Position numbers and translations under genes: made by a program. Shown in pieces: positions 6,520 through 39,204 of a stretch of DNA of 54,610 nt. Source of the DNA: Phycisphaerae bacterium (lineage in GTDB: Bacteria; Planctomycetota; Phycisphaerae; FEN-1346); assembly GCA_035528235.1 (NCBI GenBank), contig DATKZB010000305.1, positions 1 through 54,610 on the forward strand, written 5' to 3'. The notes below the pieces were generated by a model. The model was given only the letters and a program-made list of their open reading frames with translations. It had not been told where the DNA came from and ran no database searches. Within the stretch, counting starts at the first letter, position 1, and every line of letters starts with the position of its first letter.

Positions 6520-7911
6520 TTAGATGTTCCACCACCCCTTGCGGTACTCGCGTTTGACGATGGCGTCGGCCTTGGCGCAGCCGGGGCATTTCATCGTTTT
6601 CGGGTTCCAGGTAACCTTCTGGCCGACGCGGACGGCGACGTTGGCCAGGTTCATCGCCTCGACCATGGGCCCCGCGTAGGTGAAGTTGGACTTCGGGAAG
6701 TCCCAGGGCTGTTCGCCGCGGCAGGCCTTGATGAGTTCCTCGCGGTGGCCGGGCGAATCCGGGATCCGCTCGATTTTCTTCATCTCGTCGCCCTTGAACT
6801 CGTTCATCCTGGCGCTCGGGATGAGGTTCGGGCTGTCGGAGTAGTCGCCCTGGACGTAAATCTTGCCCTTGGTGCCGATGAAGAGGTTGCCGCTGCCGCT
6901 CAGTTGCACGCTGTTCGGGTCGCCGGCCTTCTTCTGGTAGGCCGGGTCTTCCTTCATCTCGTCGGGCACGTCGGGCTTGAGACCGCCTTCGTACCAGTAG
7001 GCGGTCCAGGCGGGCTTCTTCCCCTTGGCCGGGAACATCCACTTCACAAGCATCTGCTTCGGGAACGTTTCGTCGCCGAGTTCGACGACCTTGATCGGTT
7101 CGGCGCTAAGCGGCGCGTCGGCCCCCATCGACCACCAAACGTTGTCCCAGGTGTGACAGCCCATGTCGCCGACGGCCCCGCAGCCATAGTCGAACCAGCC
7201 ACGCCACGCGAACGGATGGACCGGGCTGCCCCCGTCGTTCTTGGTGATGTACGGCCGCTTCGGGGCCACGCCCAGCCAGGCGTCCCAGTTGAGGTTCTTG
7301 GGCGCCTCGCCTGTCTTGAAGGGCCCCAGTTTGCCCTGCGGCCACACGGGACGGTTCGTCCAGGTGTGGATCTCCGTGACGTCGCCGATGACGCCCGCGT
7401 TGACCCACTCGACGACGAACCGGATGCCGCGGCCGGCGTGGCCCTGGTTGCCCATCTGGGTGGGCACCTTGTGCTTCTTGGTGGCCTCGGCCAGCATGCG
7501 GGCCTCCCAGACGGAGTGCGTCAGGGGCTTCTCGCAGTAGCAGCCGGCCCCGCGGATGATGGCCGAGTACGCCGCCGGGAAGTGCGTGTGGTCGGGCGTC
7601 GCCACCAGCACCAGGTTCAGCTTCTTGTGGTTATCGTACAGTTTGCGCCAATCGGTATAGGTCTTGGCCTGGGAGTGTTTCTTGGCGAAGTCGCCCATGC
7701 GGCCTTCATCGGCATCGCACATGGCCACAACGTTCTCGCCCGAGGCCATGCCGTGCCCGGCACCGCCCTGGCCGCCGACGCCGATGAGGGCCACGTCGAG
7801 TTTACGGTTCTGGGCGTACGCGCGAAGCGACAGCGGGTCCGACAGGATGGTGACGCCCGCGGCCATGGCCGCGCCCTTCAGAAAACGACGACGACTGATG
7901 GGGTATGACAT
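6520..7911 (-). CDS. Gfo/Idh/MocA family oxidoreductase with Tat signal
   Basis: Start at ATG 7911 (MSYPISRRRFLKGAAMAAG, twin-arginine) with a GGAGGA SD. A Rossmann GVGGQG motif follows, then EKPL. The upstream 84 codons of the listed ORF cover REP elements. Confidence 0.9.
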   Translation of the reverse strand: MSYPISRRRFLKGAAMAAGVTILSDPLSLRAYAQNRKLDVALIGVGGQGGAGHGMASGENVVAMCDADEGRMGDFAKKHSQAKTYTDWRKLYDNHKKLNLVLVATPDHTHFPAAYSAIIRGAGCYCEKPLTHSVWEARMLAEATKKHKVPTQMGNQGHAGRGIRFVVEWVNAGVIGDVTEIHTWTNRPVWPQGKLGPFKTGEAPKNLNWDAWLGVAPKRPYITKNDGGSPVHPFAWRGWFDYGCGAVGDMGCHTWDNVWWSMGADAPLSAEPIKVVELGDETFPKQMLVKWMFPAKGKKPAWTAYWYEGGLKPDVPDEMKEDPAYQKKAGDPNSVQLSGSGNLFIGTKGKIYVQGDYSDSPNLIPSARMNEFKGDEMKKIERIPDSPGHREELIKACRGEQPWDFPKSNFTYAGPMVEAMNLANVAVRVGQKVTWNPKTMKCPGCAKADAIVKREYRKGWWNI

Positions 7912-8135: not shown

Positions 8136-8277
8136 CGCGCCCGGCAAGCCGGGCGGCTAACACGGCCCGACACGCCCGTTAGCCGCGGGGCTTGCCCCGC
8201 GCGTCGGCGCGCCACAACGCGCCCGGCAAGCCGGGCGGCTAACACAGGCCCGTTAGCCGCGGGGCTTGCCCCGCGCG
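8136..8277. repeat. REP-like family A, four units forming two inverted doublets (REPIN-like)
   Basis: Units at 8136..8161, 8178..8203, 8218..8243 and 8252..8277. They share a GTTAGCCG head and an 8-bp stem with CCGG or GGGG core variants carrying compensatory changes. The last unit supplies the TAA stop (8253..8255) and the last ~9 codons of ORF 8253..9599. Confidence 0.85.
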
Positions 8278-10236
8278 TCGGCCCGCGTAAAGAGGGCCGG
8301 GTCGCCGGGCATCGCCGTCTCGGCCGGCGTCACGGGCGTGAAGACGACCTTGTCGCCGGCCACCTTGATTTTGCCGACGATGTAGCGGCGCTCGTTGTCG
8401 CTGGTCCCCAGAAGCGAGACGCGGCCCAGCGAGGGCTGGGAGAAGAAGCCGACGCGGACGTCGAAATCGCCCTCCAGGCCGGGCGGCACCGTGACCGTGA
8501 ACGGCCCCTCGACGTACTCGCCCACCGGCCACTTCGACGTGCCGGGGTCGGGCAGGTGGTCGTTCTGGAACTGGATGGCCGCACCCGCCGGGTCGGTGAA
8601 GTGCACGAAGACGCGCCAGTCGGCCTCGACGGTCTTCTCGACCGCCCAGCGATAGGTAATCCGGAACGTGCGGCCGCCGGCGGTCTTGACCTCGGCCGCC
8701 TTGGGGGCCACGGCCACCGCCTCGGCCTTGCCCGACCACTGCTTCCAGTACAGGTGCGGCGGGATGCTATGGTAGTTGAGCGGCCGGCCGATGCCGACGT
8801 GGTCCAGCACGTACTCGGCCGCCTGGTTGATGTCGTACCCATACTTGCCATACATGGCGATACAATCGCGGTAGACCATCTCGAAGAGCGGCACGGGCGC
8901 CGCACCCAGCGCGTCCAGCAGTCCCTTATTGTGGTAGTAGGAGCCGCTGACGCCGGTGAGCCCCTCGAAGAAATCGGCGTGCGGCACGGCCCACTCGCGC
9001 CCGCACTCGCTGCCGAAACTGCCGAAAACCTCGCGGGCGTAGTCCGAAAGGGCCTGCTTGTACTTCATGTCGTCGGCGCGGGTAAGCGGGTGCTCCTTCG
9101 AGAAGCATTCCTGGAGGCCGGCGGCGTAGGTCGTGTCGATGAAGTAGGAGTCGGCGCCCGAGAGTTTCTCGACCGCCGCGAGGTTCTGCGGTCGCTTCGC
9201 CAGGTCGACCGCCCGCCGGGCACAGGTGATGTACGCGCGTCCGCCCGCCCACCGGCCGCCGACGGTGGGCTTGCCGTCCGGGTTCCTCTGGAGGCAACTC
9301 TCGTCCCACGAGGGCGAGTCGCGGTAGATGTCCTGGTAATTGTCGTGCAGCGACAGGATGTACCCGAGTTCTCGGACGCGTCGGCAGCAGCGGGCGAAGG
9401 CCTCGTCGCCGCCGCACTCCGGCGCCGTCGGCAGGACGTCGGGATGCTGGTTGTCGTAGCCGCGATGGATCCACCCGCCCATGATGAAGAGGACCCGCTC
9501 CAGCGCGAGGTCCCGCTTCAGGTGCTCGGCAATCTGGCGGGCCTCGTCGAACGTCCAGTTGACCCGGTGCGATTCCTCCTGGGTGCTCTCGTCGTTCATC
9601 TGGCGCGACAGGGTAGACTAGAGTTTGAAGTTGACCGCGCCGAAGTATTTGGCCCGGTCGGCGTGCCCTTTAAGTTTCTCGTCCCAGGTGACCAGCCAGC
9701 CGCGCTCGCGGGCCACCTCGCGGTACGCCGCGGCGATGAGATTGTAGTCGCCCTTGCCCAGAAATGCGACCCGCGCCGCCCGGGCCGACTTGCGGAGCAC
9801 CAGCGACAGCCCCAGCACCTGCCGGCCCAGGTAGTAACCCGTGCCATCGGCACGGCTCACCTCGGCCACGACGTACGGGTCGTCCCACGTTACCAGGGCG
9901 GCCGCGCCGGCCTTGACGATGCCCACCATCGCCATGTGGCAGCCCTCGTAGGCGTACGTGTCGAAGGCGTGGCGGACGGGGCGGGTACCCTTGGCCGGAA
10001 TCAACAGGCCCTCGCGGACCGGCACGACGACGTACCCCTGGTCCGCGCCGCTGGTGGTCCAGAGGGCCTCGTCAAGCAGGCGGATGTGTTCGACGGAAGC
10101 GGGGTCGGCGGCGTCCCAGGCGAAATCGAGGGCCTTGCCACCCGGGGCCGCCGCAACGGTCACGCGGACCCACGCGTCGGGCTTCTCGGGGACGGGACGG
10201 AAGGTCAGTTCGAGCGCGCTACCGTCTTTTTTTTTT
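8253..10236 (-). pseudogene. Interrupted TIM-barrel glycoside-hydrolase-like gene (tentatively DUF5696-like), read as two ORF pieces
   Basis: The pieces are 9618..10163 (frame open back to the A-run at 10227..10236) and 8253..9599. They are in the same frame, separated only by TAG (9618..9620) plus 6 codons. There is no SD before the Met at 9599. The upstream continuation lies in the -1-related frame of ORF 10205..11788. The GWIHRGYDNQHPDVLP...LHDNYQDIY motifs look like a sugar-hydrolase barrel (recalled, low certainty). Confidence 0.6.
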
Positions 10237-11788
10237 CGGCGTCACAGGGGCCCAAGACGAGGTCCTGGGCCTTGCCGTCGACCGTCATGCGGACGCGCCC
10301 GAATCCCCCCTTCCGGCCGTCGGAGCACCACGTCACGCCTCCCGCCCGGTCGGCGATTCGGTACCCGCCCGTTTCCGTGCGGACGGTGAACTCCAGGTCG
10401 GCGGTCTGGAGCGAGGCGGGCCCGGCCGCGCCGGCCGGGCCGGCTTCGCCCTTGGCGCCGGCGGCCTTCTTCGCCTTCAGGGCCTCGCGGAGCGACCGGC
10501 TCATGTAGGGCGGCTGGTGGCGGGTCATCTCGGCCAGGAGTTTAAAGAACCCGTACTTGCGGAGGCTCGAGATGCCCCAGTCGACCGGCACGCTCTGGTA
10601 CCCCTCGCTGAAGCCCTCTTCCTTCTTCCGGAAGTCGAAGAACCCCCAACCGGCGTACTCGCTGACAGCGGCAATCATGTTGTTGTCGGGCTGGTCGAAG
10701 TCGTAGTGATCGTCTTCGTTGAAGAGGATGGGCTTCTCATTGCCGCCCATCCGCTTGCGGGTGGCCTGGACCATGCGTCGGATGCCGGCGGGCTCGCCGA
10801 CACCGTTGCCGTGCAGCAGGACGAAGTCGCCGGCCCGGACGATGTCGTTCGGCGGCAGGGCCCCGCCGCCCATGCTCACGCTCACCAGCAGCCGCCCGGC
10901 CGGGCTCTTGACCTTGCCCTCGCTGCGTTTCTGGACGAGTTCGATGAGTTCCTTGACGCGTTGCTGGGTGAGGATGGCGTGGTCGTACTGGCGGACGTTG
11001 CACTCGTTGCAAATCTCCACCAGGACGTTCGTGTACTTTTTCTCGATGAGCCAGTCGGTGGCGTCCTCGGTGGCCCGGATGACCGACCGTTCATCCCAGA
11101 TGCGCTCATCCTGACCGAAGTAGAAGTACCCCAGGATGACCACCATGCCGAGTTCGTCGGCCTTGTCGATGATGCTCTCCAGCCGCGCCAGGTAATCGGC
11201 CCGCAGGCGGCCGTCGGCCTCGAACGCCGAATGGTGCCACGGCTGGACCGCGCTGTACCCCTCGGGGCTCCCGCCCTGGAGGTTGATCGTAAAGGCCAGC
11301 AGGCCGTGCGCCCGCCACGTGGGCATGGCCCGGATAAACTCGTGCGTGTTGCGCTCGGCGTCCCACGGCCCGTCGGGGTACTTCCAGCGCGAGCGCGTCT
11401 CGGGGTTGCGGTCGTCGAAGACGCCCTGCACCAGGCGGGCGTTCATCAGCAGGCCTTCGATCTTGTACTGCTTGTCTTTCGGCGCGCTGCGGGGCCAGCC
11501 GCGGCCCGGATACGTCGGCCTCTCGTTAATCTGGAAGGCGTTCTTGGCGATGCTGACCGTCGTCTTCCGCTGCATTTCCGGGTCCTCCAGCAGCGTCTGG
11601 TCCACCGTCACGGGGGCCTCTTCGGCCGGGGGCTTCCCGCCCGGCTTAGCAGGCGGCGCGGTCGCGGCAGGCTGAGGCGGCCTGGGAGGAAGCGGCCCCG
11701 GCGGCCTGCCCGCCCAGCACGGTTCCCCGGCCAGCAGACCGCACGCCAGGACTATCCCAGCCGCAAGCCATACCCGTGAGCAACACAT
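10205..11788 (-). CDS. Secreted GH5-like (cellulase-family TIM barrel) glycoside hydrolase whose ORF runs on into the N-terminus of the downstream module
   Basis: Start at ATG 11788 (MCCSRVWLAAGIVLACGLLAG, a signal peptide). VLVEICNECN resembles the GH5 NE acid/base motif. There is no stop before the linker KAKKAAGAKGEAGPAGAAG and a beta-rich segment that ends just after the A10 run. Confidence 0.65.
   Translation of the reverse strand: MCCSRVWLAAGIVLACGLLAGEPCWAGRPPGPLPPRPPQPAATAPPAKPGGKPPAEEAPVTVDQTLLEDPEMQRKTTVSIAKNAFQINERPTYPGRGWPRSAPKDKQYKIEGLLMNARLVQGVFDDRNPETRSRWKYPDGPWDAERNTHEFIRAMPTWRAHGLLAFTINLQGGSPEGYSAVQPWHHSAFEADGRLRADYLARLESIIDKADELGMVVILGYFYFGQDERIWDERSVIRATEDATDWLIEKKYTNVLVEICNECNVRQYDHAILTQQRVKELIELVQKRSEGKVKSPAGRLLVSVSMGGGALPPNDIVRAGDFVLLHGNGVGEPAGIRRMVQATRKRMGGNEKPILFNEDDHYDFDQPDNNMIAAVSEYAGWGFFDFRKKEEGFSEGYQSVPVDWGISSLRKYGFFKLLAEMTRHQPPYMSRSLREALKAKKAAGAKGEAGPAGAAGPASLQTADLEFTVRTETGGYRIADRAGGVTWCSDGRKGGFGRVRMTVDGKAQDLVLGPCDAEKKKTVARSN
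10227..10236 (-). other. A10 homopolymer (coding strand) creating an A_AAA_AAG heptamer in the zero frame
   Basis: The coding strand reads GAC GCC GAA AAA AAA AAG ACG GTA GCG CGC TCG AAC TGA. A -1 shift reads ...AAA AAA GAC GGT AGC GCG CTC GAA... and joins the frame of ORF 9618..10163. Confidence 0.9.
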
Positions 11789-12091
11789 AGCCGTTCGCCT
11801 TTCCCCATGACCCGCCACGCGCGTTCGGAAACCGGGCCTACACCACCGCCGCCGCCGCGAGCCATCGGTCCCCGCCCGCGGCCAACCAGGAAGTACATCG
11901 GACCCTCGTTGACTGAAACCCGGTCGGCCCCCCCCCCGGTTTCCCAAAATCCGGTCTTGACAGTCCCCTCGGCGGGTGGTAGCCAGATGCCCATTGCACG
12001 CCCGGCCCGTGCTTCGCCGCCGCCTGTCGGCGGGGAACCCGTGGCGGCGTGCCGCCTGGGAGGCGTCGTGGCCCGATATCGCAGCCCGCTG

Positions 12092-12967: not shown

Positions 12968-15859
12968 ATGTCCAAGCAGCAGCGAAGCGAGTTGAAGACG
13001 GCGTTGGGTCGCCTGGTGGACCGCCGTAACCACTTGGCCGAACGCATCCTGGCGGAACTCGAGTTCGTCGAGGGCCTGGCGTCGCTTCATCCGACCAAGG
13101 CCGCGCGATGGACCCGCCTGGCCGACCAGGCCGCCGGCGTCGTCGCCAAGGCCCTGGCCTCCGGCCGCCTCGACCGTCTCGACAAGGCCGTCGGGGACGC
13201 CGAGGCGATTCTCGCGCCCGTCGGCAAGACGGCCAAGACCTACACGATCCACTGCGTCGGCCACGCGCACATCGACATGAACTGGATGTGGTCGTGGGCC
13301 GAGACGGTGGCGTGCGCCAACGACACGTTCCTGACGATGCTGAAACTGATGGACGAGTTTCCGGACTTCTGTTTCACGCAGAGCCAGGCGTCGGTGTACG
13401 CCATCCTGTGCGACTATAACGCCGAGAGGCTCGAGGCCGTCCGCCGCCGCGTCGCCGAGGGGCGGTGGGAGGTGGCCGCGTCGCACTGGGTCGAGGGCGA
13501 CAAGAACATCGCCGCCGGCGAGGCACTGGCCCGGCACCTCCTGTACACCCGCCGGTTCATCAAGGAGACGCTGGGCCTGGAGGCCGACGACGTCCTCATC
13601 GACTGGTCGCCCGACACCTTCGGCCACGCCCACACCATTCCGACGATCAACTCGCGCGGCGGCGTGCGCCACTACTACATGTGCCGCGGAGGCGCCGACC
13701 CCAAGCCCCCCGTCTTCTGGTGGCAGGGACCCGACGGCGCCCGCATCCTCGTGAACCTGGAGACCACCTGGTACAACGATCACATCGGCCCGCACAACGC
13801 CCAGGCCATGCTGGCCTTCTGCGCGAGGACCGGCATCCGGGACTGGATGAACGTTTACGGCGTGGGCGACCACGGCGGCGGACCCACCCGGCGCGACATC
13901 CTCCGGGCCATCGACATGAATACCTGGCCCATCTTCCCGGCGTTCCGGTTTTCGACGACCCGCCGGTACTTCCCCCTTCTCGAAAAGCACGCCCAGGCCT
14001 GGCCCGTTCTCGACGGCGAACTCAACTTCGAGTTCACCGGCTGCTACACCTCCCAGGCCGCCATCAAGCACGCCAACCGTTTCGGCGAGAACTACTGCCT
14101 GGAGGCCGAGGCCGCCGCCGCCGTCGCCCGCCGGGCCGTCGGACGGCCCGTGCCCGCCGAGGCCATCCGCGAGTCGTGGATCAACACCCTCTTCGGCCAC
14201 TTCCACGACATCCTGCCCGGCTCCGGCAACCGGATGACGCGCGAGTGGCAGATGGGCCTCTTCCAGCGGACCACGGCCGCCACCGGCATCATCAAGACCG
14301 AGTCGCTTCGGGCCATCGCCGCCCAGGCCGACACCTCGTTCGCCGGCCAGGCCGCTCCGCCCGACGAGACGCCCGACCGGGCCGGCACAGCCATCGGCGG
14401 CGGCCCCGGGCGCGGCACGATGCTGGGCGGCGTCACCACGGCCGGCCACGTCACCCACGGGCCGCGCGCCTTCCTCGCCTTCAACCCCACCGCCTGGCCG
14501 CGCAACGAAATCGTCACGGCCACCCTTTGGGACGTCGAGACCGGCGAGCCGGGCGCCGCCAAGAAGACGTTCGTCGTCCACACGCCCGATGGCAAGACGC
14601 TGCCCGCCCAGCGGACCGCCGACGGCGGCTACTGGGGCCATCAGTACGTCGACGTGGCCTTTCCGGCATCGGTCGGCGCCCTGGGATACGCGGCCTGCGC
14701 CGTCGCGGAAGGCGACGCGCCGGCGCCCAAGGGCGGCGTGACGTGCGGCGGCGGATTCCGCGGCGGCGAACAGCAGCCCGTCGGCGACTTCACCCTTGAG
14801 AACGAGCACCTCGCCGTCGCCTTCGACCGGCAAACGGGCGGCATCGTCCGACTCCTCGACAAGGCCACCGGCCGCGACCTCGCATCGCCCGACGCCCCGC
14901 TGGCCCTGCTGGAATACGTCCTCGAGCGGCCGCGCGGCATGTCGGCGTGGGTCCTGGGCGACCCGAAGGAGCAGCGGTGCCCGCTGGCGCTGGACGCCTT
15001 CGGACCGGGCCTCGCGGGGCCGTACGTCGCCTCGATGGTCGCCAAACTCAAGGTCAACCAGTCCGACGTCAAGGTGACGTACACGCTGAGGGCCGGGCAG
15101 GGGCAACTCGACGTCGCCGTCGAGGCCCACTGGGTCGAGATCGGCGGCAAGGAGACGGGCGTGCCGGCGCTGCGCATGCGGTTTCCGCTGGCGCTGGCGG
15201 CCGCCAAGGCCCGATACGAAATCCCCTTCGGCAGCATCGAGCGCGACCTGAACCGCGGCCAGGAAGTGCCCGCCCTGCGATGGGCCGACGTCACCGGCAA
15301 GGCCCCCGGCGGGGCCCGAGGCGGGATGGCCCTCTTGAACGACTCCAAGTATGGACATTCGCTCGATGGCTCGACGCTGCGGCTGACCCTCATCCGCTCG
15401 ACGTACGAGCCCGACCCCCTGCCCGAGGTCGGCGACCACGCCATCCGCATGGCCCTCGTGCCGCACGGCAAAGACCTGCCGGTAGCCGACCTGGTGCGGC
15501 TGGGTGCGGCGTTCAACCACCAGCTGCTGATCGTGAGCACCGACGTCCACGCCGGCCGGTTGCCGGCGACCGCATCGGCCGTCGCCGCGGCGCCCACCAA
15601 CGTCGTCGTATCGTCGGTCCGCGCGGCGCAGGACGACGACGCCGTCATCATCCACCTCTTCGAGACCGCCGGCAAGAAGACCGCCGCCAAGGTCACGCTG
15701 AACGCCGACCTCCTGGGCACGCCGGCCGACGCCGTTGAGGTGGACCTGCTGGAGCGGCCCGTCGAAAAGCCCACCGCCAAGGCGGCGCCCGGCGGGTTTC
15801 AGGTAACGGTGCCCGCCCGCGGCATCGCCGCCGTCAAGGTGAGGTTCCGTGAGGCCTAA
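12968..15859 (+). CDS. GH38 alpha-mannosidase
   Basis: 963-aa ORF with the HAHIDMNWMW, WVEGD and SPDTFGH motifs of the GH38 N-terminal domain, and a long C-terminal beta-rich region. Confidence 0.9.
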   Translation: MSKQQRSELKTALGRLVDRRNHLAERILAELEFVEGLASLHPTKAARWTRLADQAAGVVAKALASGRLDRLDKAVGDAEAILAPVGKTAKTYTIHCVGHAHIDMNWMWSWAETVACANDTFLTMLKLMDEFPDFCFTQSQASVYAILCDYNAERLEAVRRRVAEGRWEVAASHWVEGDKNIAAGEALARHLLYTRRFIKETLGLEADDVLIDWSPDTFGHAHTIPTINSRGGVRHYYMCRGGADPKPPVFWWQGPDGARILVNLETTWYNDHIGPHNAQAMLAFCARTGIRDWMNVYGVGDHGGGPTRRDILRAIDMNTWPIFPAFRFSTTRRYFPLLEKHAQAWPVLDGELNFEFTGCYTSQAAIKHANRFGENYCLEAEAAAAVARRAVGRPVPAEAIRESWINTLFGHFHDILPGSGNRMTREWQMGLFQRTTAATGIIKTESLRAIAAQADTSFAGQAAPPDETPDRAGTAIGGGPGRGTMLGGVTTAGHVTHGPRAFLAFNPTAWPRNEIVTATLWDVETGEPGAAKKTFVVHTPDGKTLPAQRTADGGYWGHQYVDVAFPASVGALGYAACAVAEGDAPAPKGGVTCGGGFRGGEQQPVGDFTLENEHLAVAFDRQTGGIVRLLDKATGRDLASPDAPLALLEYVLERPRGMSAWVLGDPKEQRCPLALDAFGPGLAGPYVASMVAKLKVNQSDVKVTYTLRAGQGQLDVAVEAHWVEIGGKETGVPALRMRFPLALAAAKARYEIPFGSIERDLNRGQEVPALRWADVTGKAPGGARGGMALLNDSKYGHSLDGSTLRLTLIRSTYEPDPLPEVGDHAIRMALVPHGKDLPVADLVRLGAAFNHQLLIVSTDVHAGRLPATASAVAAAPTNVVVSSVRAAQDDDAVIIHLFETAGKKTAAKVTLNADLLGTPADAVEVDLLERPVEKPTAKAAPGGFQVTVPARGIAAVKVRFREA

Positions 15860-39052: not shown

Positions 39053-39204
39053 ACGCGCCGCGCAAGCGCGGCGGCTAACCTTGCCCGGCTTGGCGCTGCG
39101 CAAGCGCGGCGGCTAACTCGGGCCGACACGGCGCCGCGCGAGCGCGGCGGCTAACCTTGCCCGGCTTGGCGCTGCGCCAGCGCGGCGGCTAACTCGGGCC
39201 GGGC
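39053..39204. repeat. Tandem duplication (2 x 76 bp) containing four family A REP units
   Basis: The period of 76 was measured between ctaaccttgcc at 39075 and at 39151. The units are cgc(a/c/g)agcgcggcggctaac with a CGCG-core stem variant. Confidence 0.85.

Follow-up and report, generated by a model that had tools for sequence, protein, structure and literature searches.

A candidate slippery A10 tract in a glycosidase gene family of Phycisphaerae, and its apparent relic in a decaying copy

Background

Where a reading frame breaks at a homopolymer, does the break mark an error in the sequence, a dying gene, or a site at which one gene gives two proteins? The question is raised by a stretch of 54,610 nucleotides (hereafter 'the window'), which is contig C305 of a metagenome-assembled genome (MAG) of 3.9 Mb and 403 contigs from a Phycisphaerae bacterium. 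On its minus strand, a gene for a putative secreted glycosidase of two modules is interrupted at a run of ten adenines (A10). An earlier note on this sequence had recognised the run as a dnaX-type slippery site at a domain junction, and had named recoding, phase variation and homopolymer error as possible explanations. The comparisons made here, which draw on 22 genomes of the same family and on further alleles, gave one answer for the gene family and another for the window. In the family, the balance of the evidence from DNA tips towards a real and selected slippery site resembling that of Thermus dnaX, which would give short and long isoforms of the glycosidase. The window copy itself is very probably an allele that templates the short form, and whose downstream half is decaying.

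Results

A two-module glycosidase gene broken at A10

All of the elements first reported around the run were confirmed on the minus strand: the A10 itself, the heptamer A_AAA_AAG in phase, the TGA six codons on and the open -1 frame. The strand reads GAC GCC GAA AAA AAA AAG ACG GTA GCG CGC TCG AAC TGA, and the features at the break are as follows.

10205..11788, minus strand: coding sequence in the 0 frame, 527 codons plus stop, with its ATG at 11788
10227..10236, minus strand: the A10 run (T10 on the plus strand), read as GAA AAA AAA AAG in the 0 frame, which places A_AAA_AAG in phase
10205..10207, minus strand: the 0-frame TGA, six codons past the run and inside a conserved GAA CTG ACC (E-L-T in the -1 frame)
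9621..10232, minus strand: continuation in the -1 frame, 204 codons, covering the remainder of the N-terminal beta domain and the first part of the DUF5696 core

Past the run, the -1 frame reads KK DGSALELTFRPVPEKPDAWVRVTVAAAPGGK and continues KKDGSALELTFRPVPEKPDAWVRV..., before entering the open reading frame (ORF) at 9618..10163. The -1 reading does enter this ORF, as the earlier note had said; it is not unbroken, however, because an in-frame TAG stands at 9618..9620.

The 0-frame product comprised, in order, a signal peptide, a proline-rich stretch, a barrel resembling glycoside hydrolase family 5 (GH5; clan GH-A), a linker rich in Gly, Ala and Lys, the first residues of a DUF5696 module (which begins SLQTADLEFTV...) and the tail KKKTVARSN. 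In the AlphaFold model of this product, the (beta/alpha)8 barrel (residues ~70-445) had a predicted local distance difference test (pLDDT) score above 90, while the stub and tail were of low confidence. Foldseek matched the barrel to GH140 and GH5 enzymes of clan GH-A; the Pfam Cellulase match to the product was weak. The GH5-like module also stands alone, as homologues of about 350 residues in thousands of genomes. With the breaks joined, the second module matched Pfam DUF5696, DUF6259 and GH129, the DUF5696 match spanning the TAG, and its closest solved relatives were 5opq (a 3,6-anhydro-D-galactosidase) and 5wzn (a GH129 alpha-N-acetylgalactosaminidase). The -1 continuation was 64-75% identical to orthologues. 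The run does not lie at a domain junction, as had been supposed, but within the DUF5696 module, about 63 residues from its start, in a loop of variable length and sequence among orthologues. An arrangement of two separate genes was considered for the out-of-frame alleles and rejected, since these first ~63 DUF5696 residues sit in the upstream frame; in addition, the downstream ORF lacks a separate signal peptide, and stand-alone homologues of about 890 residues have both the signal peptide and those first residues.

The host genome is 68.9% GC. Two A/T runs of at least ten were found, compared with 0.05 expected under an independent-base model, and so the A10 run is far beyond chance. AAA accounts for 18% of Lys codons in the host and GTA for 2% of Val codons.

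In-frame and out-of-frame alleles in relatives

An orthologue was present in 10 of the 22 family genomes, and extra alleles were recovered through pattern scans, protein searches and contig look-ups. A run of nine or ten A's is kept at the site in a clade spanning at least three genera, as GTA AAA AAA AAA or a variant of it, and the string AACTGACCTTCC is conserved among alleles. In G009, G010, G005 and the window's sister (P0002), the loop is written in GC-rich codons and there is no run. The alleles that bear the run were assigned by frame as follows.

In frame, read from DNA: G020, G015, G003, G013, L103, L104
In frame, known from protein only: P0003, P0242, P0243, P0255
Out of frame, read from DNA: the window, G018 type, G021 type (L040), L054, L036, L055, L039/L052, L053
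Out of frame, known from protein only: P0129

Thus, nine distinct out-of-frame alleles could be set beside about ten in-frame alleles. All nine end at the same AAC TGA, and all would therefore be corrected by one additional nucleotide or by a -1 shift; none was in the other out-of-frame phase. Their 0-frame stop follows 5-6 codons after the run, and in the in-frame alleles the other two frames stop after 2 and 9 codons. Among ~19 run-bearing alleles, the run was A10, or A9 adjoining C or G, with no instance of A8, A11 or A12 at the site; similarly, for none of the out-of-frame alleles did a search of 5.8 billion proteins return an in-frame 'A11' counterpart. The in-phase heptamer was A_AAA_AAG in the window and L053, and A_AAA_AAA in the remaining out-of-frame alleles. 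The comparison of orthologues that had been proposed in the earlier note thus showed A9 or A10 at the same spot, a conserved downstream frame, and no A11 or A12.

Several differences in frame were traced to indels beside the run, for instance GCCG-A10 compared with GT-A10, and GTC-A10-T compared with GT-A10-GAT. The residues NAPA (in G003) and KRAA (in L103) come from one CGCGCCG string read in two frames, i.e., a compensated pair of indels. The in-frame allele L103 (L103:2858; ENA NODE_10839, P0148) also has the codon for the conserved Tyr of GGWIRRGYDNQHPD replaced by TAA, which indicates that the gene is decaying independently in another lineage.

Constraint downstream of the run

In four alleles, read on six loci (L020, L040, L054, L039/L052 and L053), the downstream frame ran for about 800 codons before reaching the normal stop, and in L036 it stayed open up to the contig end. 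Pairs of out-of-frame alleles showed 8-15% nucleotide divergence and a dN/dS of 0.20-0.31 (upper confidence limit <0.38), which was the same as for in-frame alleles. When an equal amount of neutral change was simulated, no stop appeared in only 0.2-1.6% of trials (P = 0.002-0.016). Those lineages that keep AAA AAA AAA after GTA are separated by dS of 0.2-0.7. A DNA tree built without the run contained two exclusively out-of-frame clades, with support of 100/100 and 100/99, and the clade of L036, L040 and L054 has one common junction layout. Judged in this way, the out-of-frame alleles other than the window's do not look dead.

Recoding, as first proposed for this locus, therefore finds support in the gene family, from the conserved run, the single phase and the open, selected downstream frames of six other lineages. 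It is not supported in the window copy; the out-of-frame arrangement with an intact, constrained downstream frame holds in the relatives and fails there.

Decay of the window copy

Three disabling lesions were identified in the window copy: its frame is broken at A10, an invariant Trp has given way to TAG, and a C-terminal domain has been lost. The second and third concern the following features.

9618..9620, minus strand: in-frame TAG, replacing a Trp (KLW-S / KLWS) that is invariant in 9 of 9 orthologues compared
8253..9617, minus strand: the same frame past the TAG, 454 codons, covering a DUF5696 / GH129-GH101-like catalytic region and a beta domain
8136..8277, no strand assigned: two tandem palindromic units of the repetitive extragenic palindrome (REP) type, with head motif GTTAGCCGC, occupying the site of the lost 3' end

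Because all nine compared orthologues have Trp at this position, the TAG is best read as a nonsense mutation from TGG. Recoding of the TAG was considered and rejected, there being no tRNA with a CUA anticodon in the genome, and the codon was treated as a stop for the same reason. The frame beyond it ends early, at a TAA (8253..8255; FTRADARGKPRG-TAA), and the two REP units supply both this stop and the last nine codons or so (DARGKPRG). Orthologues run about 170 residues further after DPALFTRA (GGWAEGLHP.D..VKNTYEVLSPL...), and these residues are lacking in the window copy; a tblastn search of the locus in any frame found no trace of the missing domain, and elsewhere in the genome only distant paralogues, on C251 and C298. 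The head motif has approximately 181 copies in the genome, with both orientations counted, and the same REP-type element was also seen at 2181-2223 and 39071-39185 of the window. Given the TAG and the missing C-terminal domain, a slip at A10 would add only 204 residues here, and would not produce a working long enzyme.

Relative-rate tests against P0243 gave different results for the two parts of the gene. In the GH5 part, the window had 32 unique changes against 48, and so was not faster; after the TAG it had 40 against 19 (p = 0.006), an excess that was seen with the nearer outgroups only. The terminal branch of the window was 0.23, compared with 0.12 in its sister. Gene calls of 468, 181 and 448 amino acids recur in three other assemblies. 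The 5' module seems to be maintained and the 3' part to be a remnant in decay, and the window lineage probably still makes the 0-frame GH5-like protein. This lineage carries an allele templating the short form, the downstream part of which has since gained the nonsense codon and lost the C-terminal domain. The A10 of the window copy is accordingly regarded as a relic, because the part downstream of it has suffered both of these changes.

The dnaX tract and a possible mechanism

The only other A10 in the host genome lies in dnaX (C6:12377-12386; G000, L069), where GAC GAA AAA AAA AAG CCG is in frame. The dnaX and glycosidase tracts share an identical 12-mer in an identical codon phase. In the host dnaX, the run is found at codon 412 of 471, after domain III, and the other frames stop 7 and 13 codons on. 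Across the 22 family genomes, 19 of the 21 dnaX loci examined carried A10 (A9 once) at a single position; the run was always in frame, and both alternative frames usually stopped within about a dozen codons of the run. On these features, the family dnaX tract is a predicted gamma/tau recoding site of the Thermus kind. Runs of A10 or longer are otherwise scarce: there are approximately 29 in the 22 genomes (~93 Mb), of which 20 belong to dnaX (two on stray contig fragments) and 5 to the glycosidase, and the remaining ~4 look non-coding. No other gene split at an A/T run was found among runs of at least 8 in the genome and at least 10 in the family, the rest being intergenic, of low GC content at third codon positions, or fragments of dnaX.

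In G010, the dnaX run was observed on two contigs, as A10 (C191:9463-9472, L084) and as A11 (C420:11-21, L102), the latter on a fragment beginning at the run. This pair may be an assembly bubble, and it points to length heterogeneity at such tracts, at the level of reads or of the population.

Slippage is efficient in vivo at runs of nine A or T and mostly adds A's, and the slippage products of Thermus dnaX carry one or more extra A's (PMC5009743). According to the same source, two tRNA-Lys species favour polymerase slippage, as in Thermus, while a single tRNA-Lys favours ribosomal frameshifting, as in E. coli, where the shiftiness of AAG depends on that single tRNA (PMC5009743). Two-ORF dnaX genes with A10 are also known (PMC3711429). 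ARAGORN identified both tRNA-Lys(CUU) and tRNA-Lys(UUU) in the host genome. Three hallmarks of Thermus-type realignment were observed, namely a run of at least nine A's, conservation beyond coding need, and nearby stops in the alternative frames. Slippage by RNA polymerase is indicated because it is the run of 9-10, rather than the AAG of the heptamer, that is conserved, and because published slippage at runs of nine A or T coincides with two tRNA-Lys species here.

Under this mechanism, RNA polymerase would slip on the T10 template and insert one or more A's, and the bias of such slippage towards insertion would explain why '+1 A' is the sole phase. One gene would then yield two secreted enzymes, a short one with the GH5-like module only and a long one with two modules (GH5-like plus DUF5696/GH129-like). 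Out-of-frame alleles would produce mostly the short protein and some of the long, and in-frame alleles the opposite, with species differing in which product the DNA frame encodes. Slippage of this kind would also be expected at the G-A10-G tract of dnaX in the same genomes. Recoding of some kind is likely in the gene family, polymerase slippage being somewhat more probable than not and ribosomal frameshifting improbable. A wider proposal is quite possible, if short of probable: that A10 is a general signal for RNA polymerase slippage in this family, retained at just two coding sites per genome, in dnaX and in the glycosidase; that at the glycosidase it sets the ratio of free GH5-like to tethered GH5-GH129-like enzyme; and that indels beside the run have repeatedly flipped the templated isoform. 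If A10 does set this ratio, it would be a tunable isoform switch for the breakdown of extracellular polysaccharides, rather than an ON/OFF switch.

Several observations weigh against a selected slippery site. The two frame states are mixed across the tree, which requires at least three switches between them, and L053 (A9, out of frame) shares its junction with G015 (A10, in frame), the sole A9/A10 difference among related alleles. The gene is dispensable in places, being broken in the window and L103 and absent from 12 of the 22 family genomes, and the lineage that is sister to the window has no run. The short product would end in 63 residues of an incomplete beta domain, whose usefulness is doubtful. 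No RNA structure with covariation support was found near the run (RNAalifold, 11 alleles; covariation term +1.17), the consensus having only a small GCGACG/CGCGC stem that flanks the run and is also constrained by coding. Finally, synonymous conservation near the run is only mildly raised, by ~1-1.7 standard deviations; synonymous variation around it was 0.12-0.20, compared with a gene mean of 0.246 (standard deviation 0.074), and as other intervals were lower these values were not used as evidence.

Alternative explanations

The foremost alternative, although an unlikely one, is that the gene is a phase-variable contingency locus, at which slippage of DNA polymerase flips the long enzyme ON and OFF, heritably and reversibly, and assemblies show the majority state. 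Phase variation had been raised in the earlier note and is kept here as a serious rival. A homopolymer within a coding region that begins with a signal peptide is consistent with it, as are the interspersed states with their three or more switches, the shared junction of L053 and G015, and the occurrence of the G010 dnaX run as both A10 and A11; the intact, selected downstream frames would equally fit periodic ON phases. However, the length of the run is near-fixed among the ~19 alleles, and this also held within types. Three further assemblies of the window type (L049-L051; two MEGAHIT assemblies from ENA and one from JGI) were 99.88-99.90% identical and ungapped, and agreed with the window in the A10, the TAG and the 3' loss; they were found through the ORF after the TAG, and so independently of the state of the run. 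For the G018 type, an exact-protein look-up with the upstream half favours the out-of-frame state and was not counted as evidence of frequency; a look-up through a neighbouring gene was used instead, and all four assemblies reached in this way had A10, out of frame. Frame-independent look-ups therefore gave the same length in 8 of 8 cases (4/4 for the window type and 4/4 for the G018 type). Moreover, the nine OFF alleles share a single phase, no in-frame length variant of any of them was found, and several frame differences are due to indels outside the run. A majority-OFF state in at least six lineages would also be odd for a gene under purifying selection.

It is less likely again that the tract is a mutational hot spot without function. 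Recurrent -1 deletions in an A-rich loop encoding Lys-Lys-Lys would make the out-of-frame alleles young pseudogenes, with the window's copy the oldest, and the deletion bias of long A runs would explain their single phase. The three lesions of the window copy, the TAA in L103 and the 12 genomes that lack the gene agree with such a process. Against it, GTA and AAA AAA AAA are kept in defiance of codon bias across the whole range of dS given above; out-of-frame alleles that have diverged by up to 15% remain free of stops for ~800 codons, which the simulations rarely reproduced, and have a dN/dS typical of constraint; and L036, L040 and L054 form an exclusively out-of-frame clade with one junction layout.

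More doubtful still is programmed -1 ribosomal frameshifting of the E. coli dnaX type, where tandem slippage of tRNA-Lys on a homogeneous mRNA would yield the long product. The heptamer is in phase as either A_AAA_AAG or A_AAA_AAA, the required shift is always -1, and there is a precedent among glycosidases, Sulfolobus fucA1, in which A_AAA_AAT shifts with 5-10% efficiency (PMC1616953). The mechanism is nevertheless not favoured for this tract. The host has tRNA-Lys(CUU) beside tRNA-Lys(UUU), the heptamer is not conserved as AAG, and ten A's are kept where seven suffice, both here and in dnaX. There was no Shine-Dalgarno (SD)-like element 10-14 nt upstream of the run; the 30 upstream nucleotides are CAGGACCTCGTCTTGGGCCCCTGTGACGCCG, in which the only AGGA is ~28 nt away, and the earlier note had likewise seen no convincing stimulator of this kind. 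Single-sequence folds downstream of the run gave stems of -19 to -31 kcal/mol, values that refer to the native sequence of 69% GC only, and no stem had support from covariation.

Lastly, the homopolymer error of which the earlier note had warned, i.e., a true run of A11 and a gene that is continuous at the run, is effectively excluded for practical purposes: homopolymers are error-prone, all of the data are short-read metagenome assemblies and the G010 dnaX run differs between two contigs, but A10 recurs in four assemblies of the window type (three of them further, independent ones) and, for the G018 type, in four assemblies reached independently of the frame and in four more at the level of the run, the sources being MEGAHIT, SPAdes, JGI and Logan; the same short-read MAGs evidently assemble A10 correctly, because it is in frame throughout in dnaX (18 times) and also in the glycosidase of G015 and G020; and A11 would remove neither the TAG nor the 3' loss.

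Neighbouring genes and a second homopolymer

In the window, the glycosidase gene is accompanied by genes for a GFO/IDH/MocA oxidoreductase with a twin-arginine translocation (TAT) signal (6520-7908) and a GH38-like alpha-mannosidase (12968-15859), and the locus looks like a glycan-degradation cluster. The G018 lineage has the same downstream order as the window, a GFO/IDH/MocA oxidoreductase followed by GH123; at the G018-type locus (L056:1-3162), the opposite strand directly upstream of the glycosidase holds a type II Cas9 gene of 1153 amino acids (Cas9_a, HNH, RuvC_III). A run of ten G's on the gene strand (C10 on the plus strand) was noted at 11928-11937 of the window, ~140 nt before the start codon of the glycosidase and flanked by a short inverted repeat (GAAACC/GGTTTC). 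This could be a second slippage-prone tract, situated in the promoter or leader.

Discussion

To our knowledge, few cellular genes (as distinct from those of phages and insertion sequences) yield two proteins by way of a poly-A tract, dnaX being the classic example. If slippage at the glycosidase tract were confirmed, a carbohydrate-active enzyme of free-living, uncultured Planctomycetota would join this short list; no earlier description of such a site emerged from a narrow literature search, either for DUF5696 or GH5-like genes or for Planctomycetota. The gene family provides a natural experiment, in that close species have the tract in or out of frame, which allows the costs and benefits of the two states to be compared, and the dnaX tract serves as an internal control. 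There is also a consequence for annotation: split 'hypothetical' genes at A9-A10 in high-GC MAGs need to be checked against orthologues before they are labelled as errors or pseudogenes. Conversely, a conserved slippery site need not mean that the local copy is functional, as the window demonstrates.

A candidate slippery site that would produce two isoforms by polymerase slippage may be compared with four known systems. The frameshift cassette of E. coli dnaX has the same in-phase heptamer and the same -1 direction as the window. The glycosidase tract differs from it in being without an SD-like stimulator at the right distance and without a supported hairpin, in coexisting with a cognate tRNA-Lys(CUU), and in that the 10-nt run, and not the AAG heptamer, is conserved among alleles.

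The alpha-L-fucosidase gene fucA1 of Sulfolobus solfataricus (PMC1616953) is likewise a glycosidase gene split in two frames at an A-rich site, and needs a -1 change. It is archaeal, however, and ribosomal frameshifting has been shown experimentally at its A_AAA_AAT, which has only seven A's (PMC1616953). Furthermore, the upstream ORF of fucA1 encodes a short piece of 9.6 kDa, while that of the window encodes a complete catalytic module.

Phase variation of p78 in Mycoplasma fermentans (as cited in PMC3711429) is alike in involving an exported protein, a coding poly-A run and alleles both in and out of frame. Unlike phase variation of this type, the glycosidase run is near-invariant, there is one OFF phase, and several of the frame changes lie outside the run.

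The closest parallels are the dnaX genes of Thermus thermophilus (A9; Larsen et al. 2000, as cited in PMC5009743) and of Chlorobi, where dnaX occurs as two ORFs with A10 (Antonov et al. 2013, PMC3711429). The differences are that a secreted glycosidase and not a replication protein is concerned here, and that the site interrupts a beta domain instead of marking a domain boundary; the two frame states alternate among the alleles of a single genus, the system is known from DNA alone, and the window copy is non-functional downstream. The likenesses are a run of 9-10 A's in the coding region, nearby stops in the other frames, and one gene with a short product and a long one, the latter two being predicted for the glycosidase. 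The G-A10-G tract is moreover present in dnaX of the host itself and of 18 relatives. The product that is templated differs between related species, and Thermus, like the host of the window, has two tRNA-Lys species.

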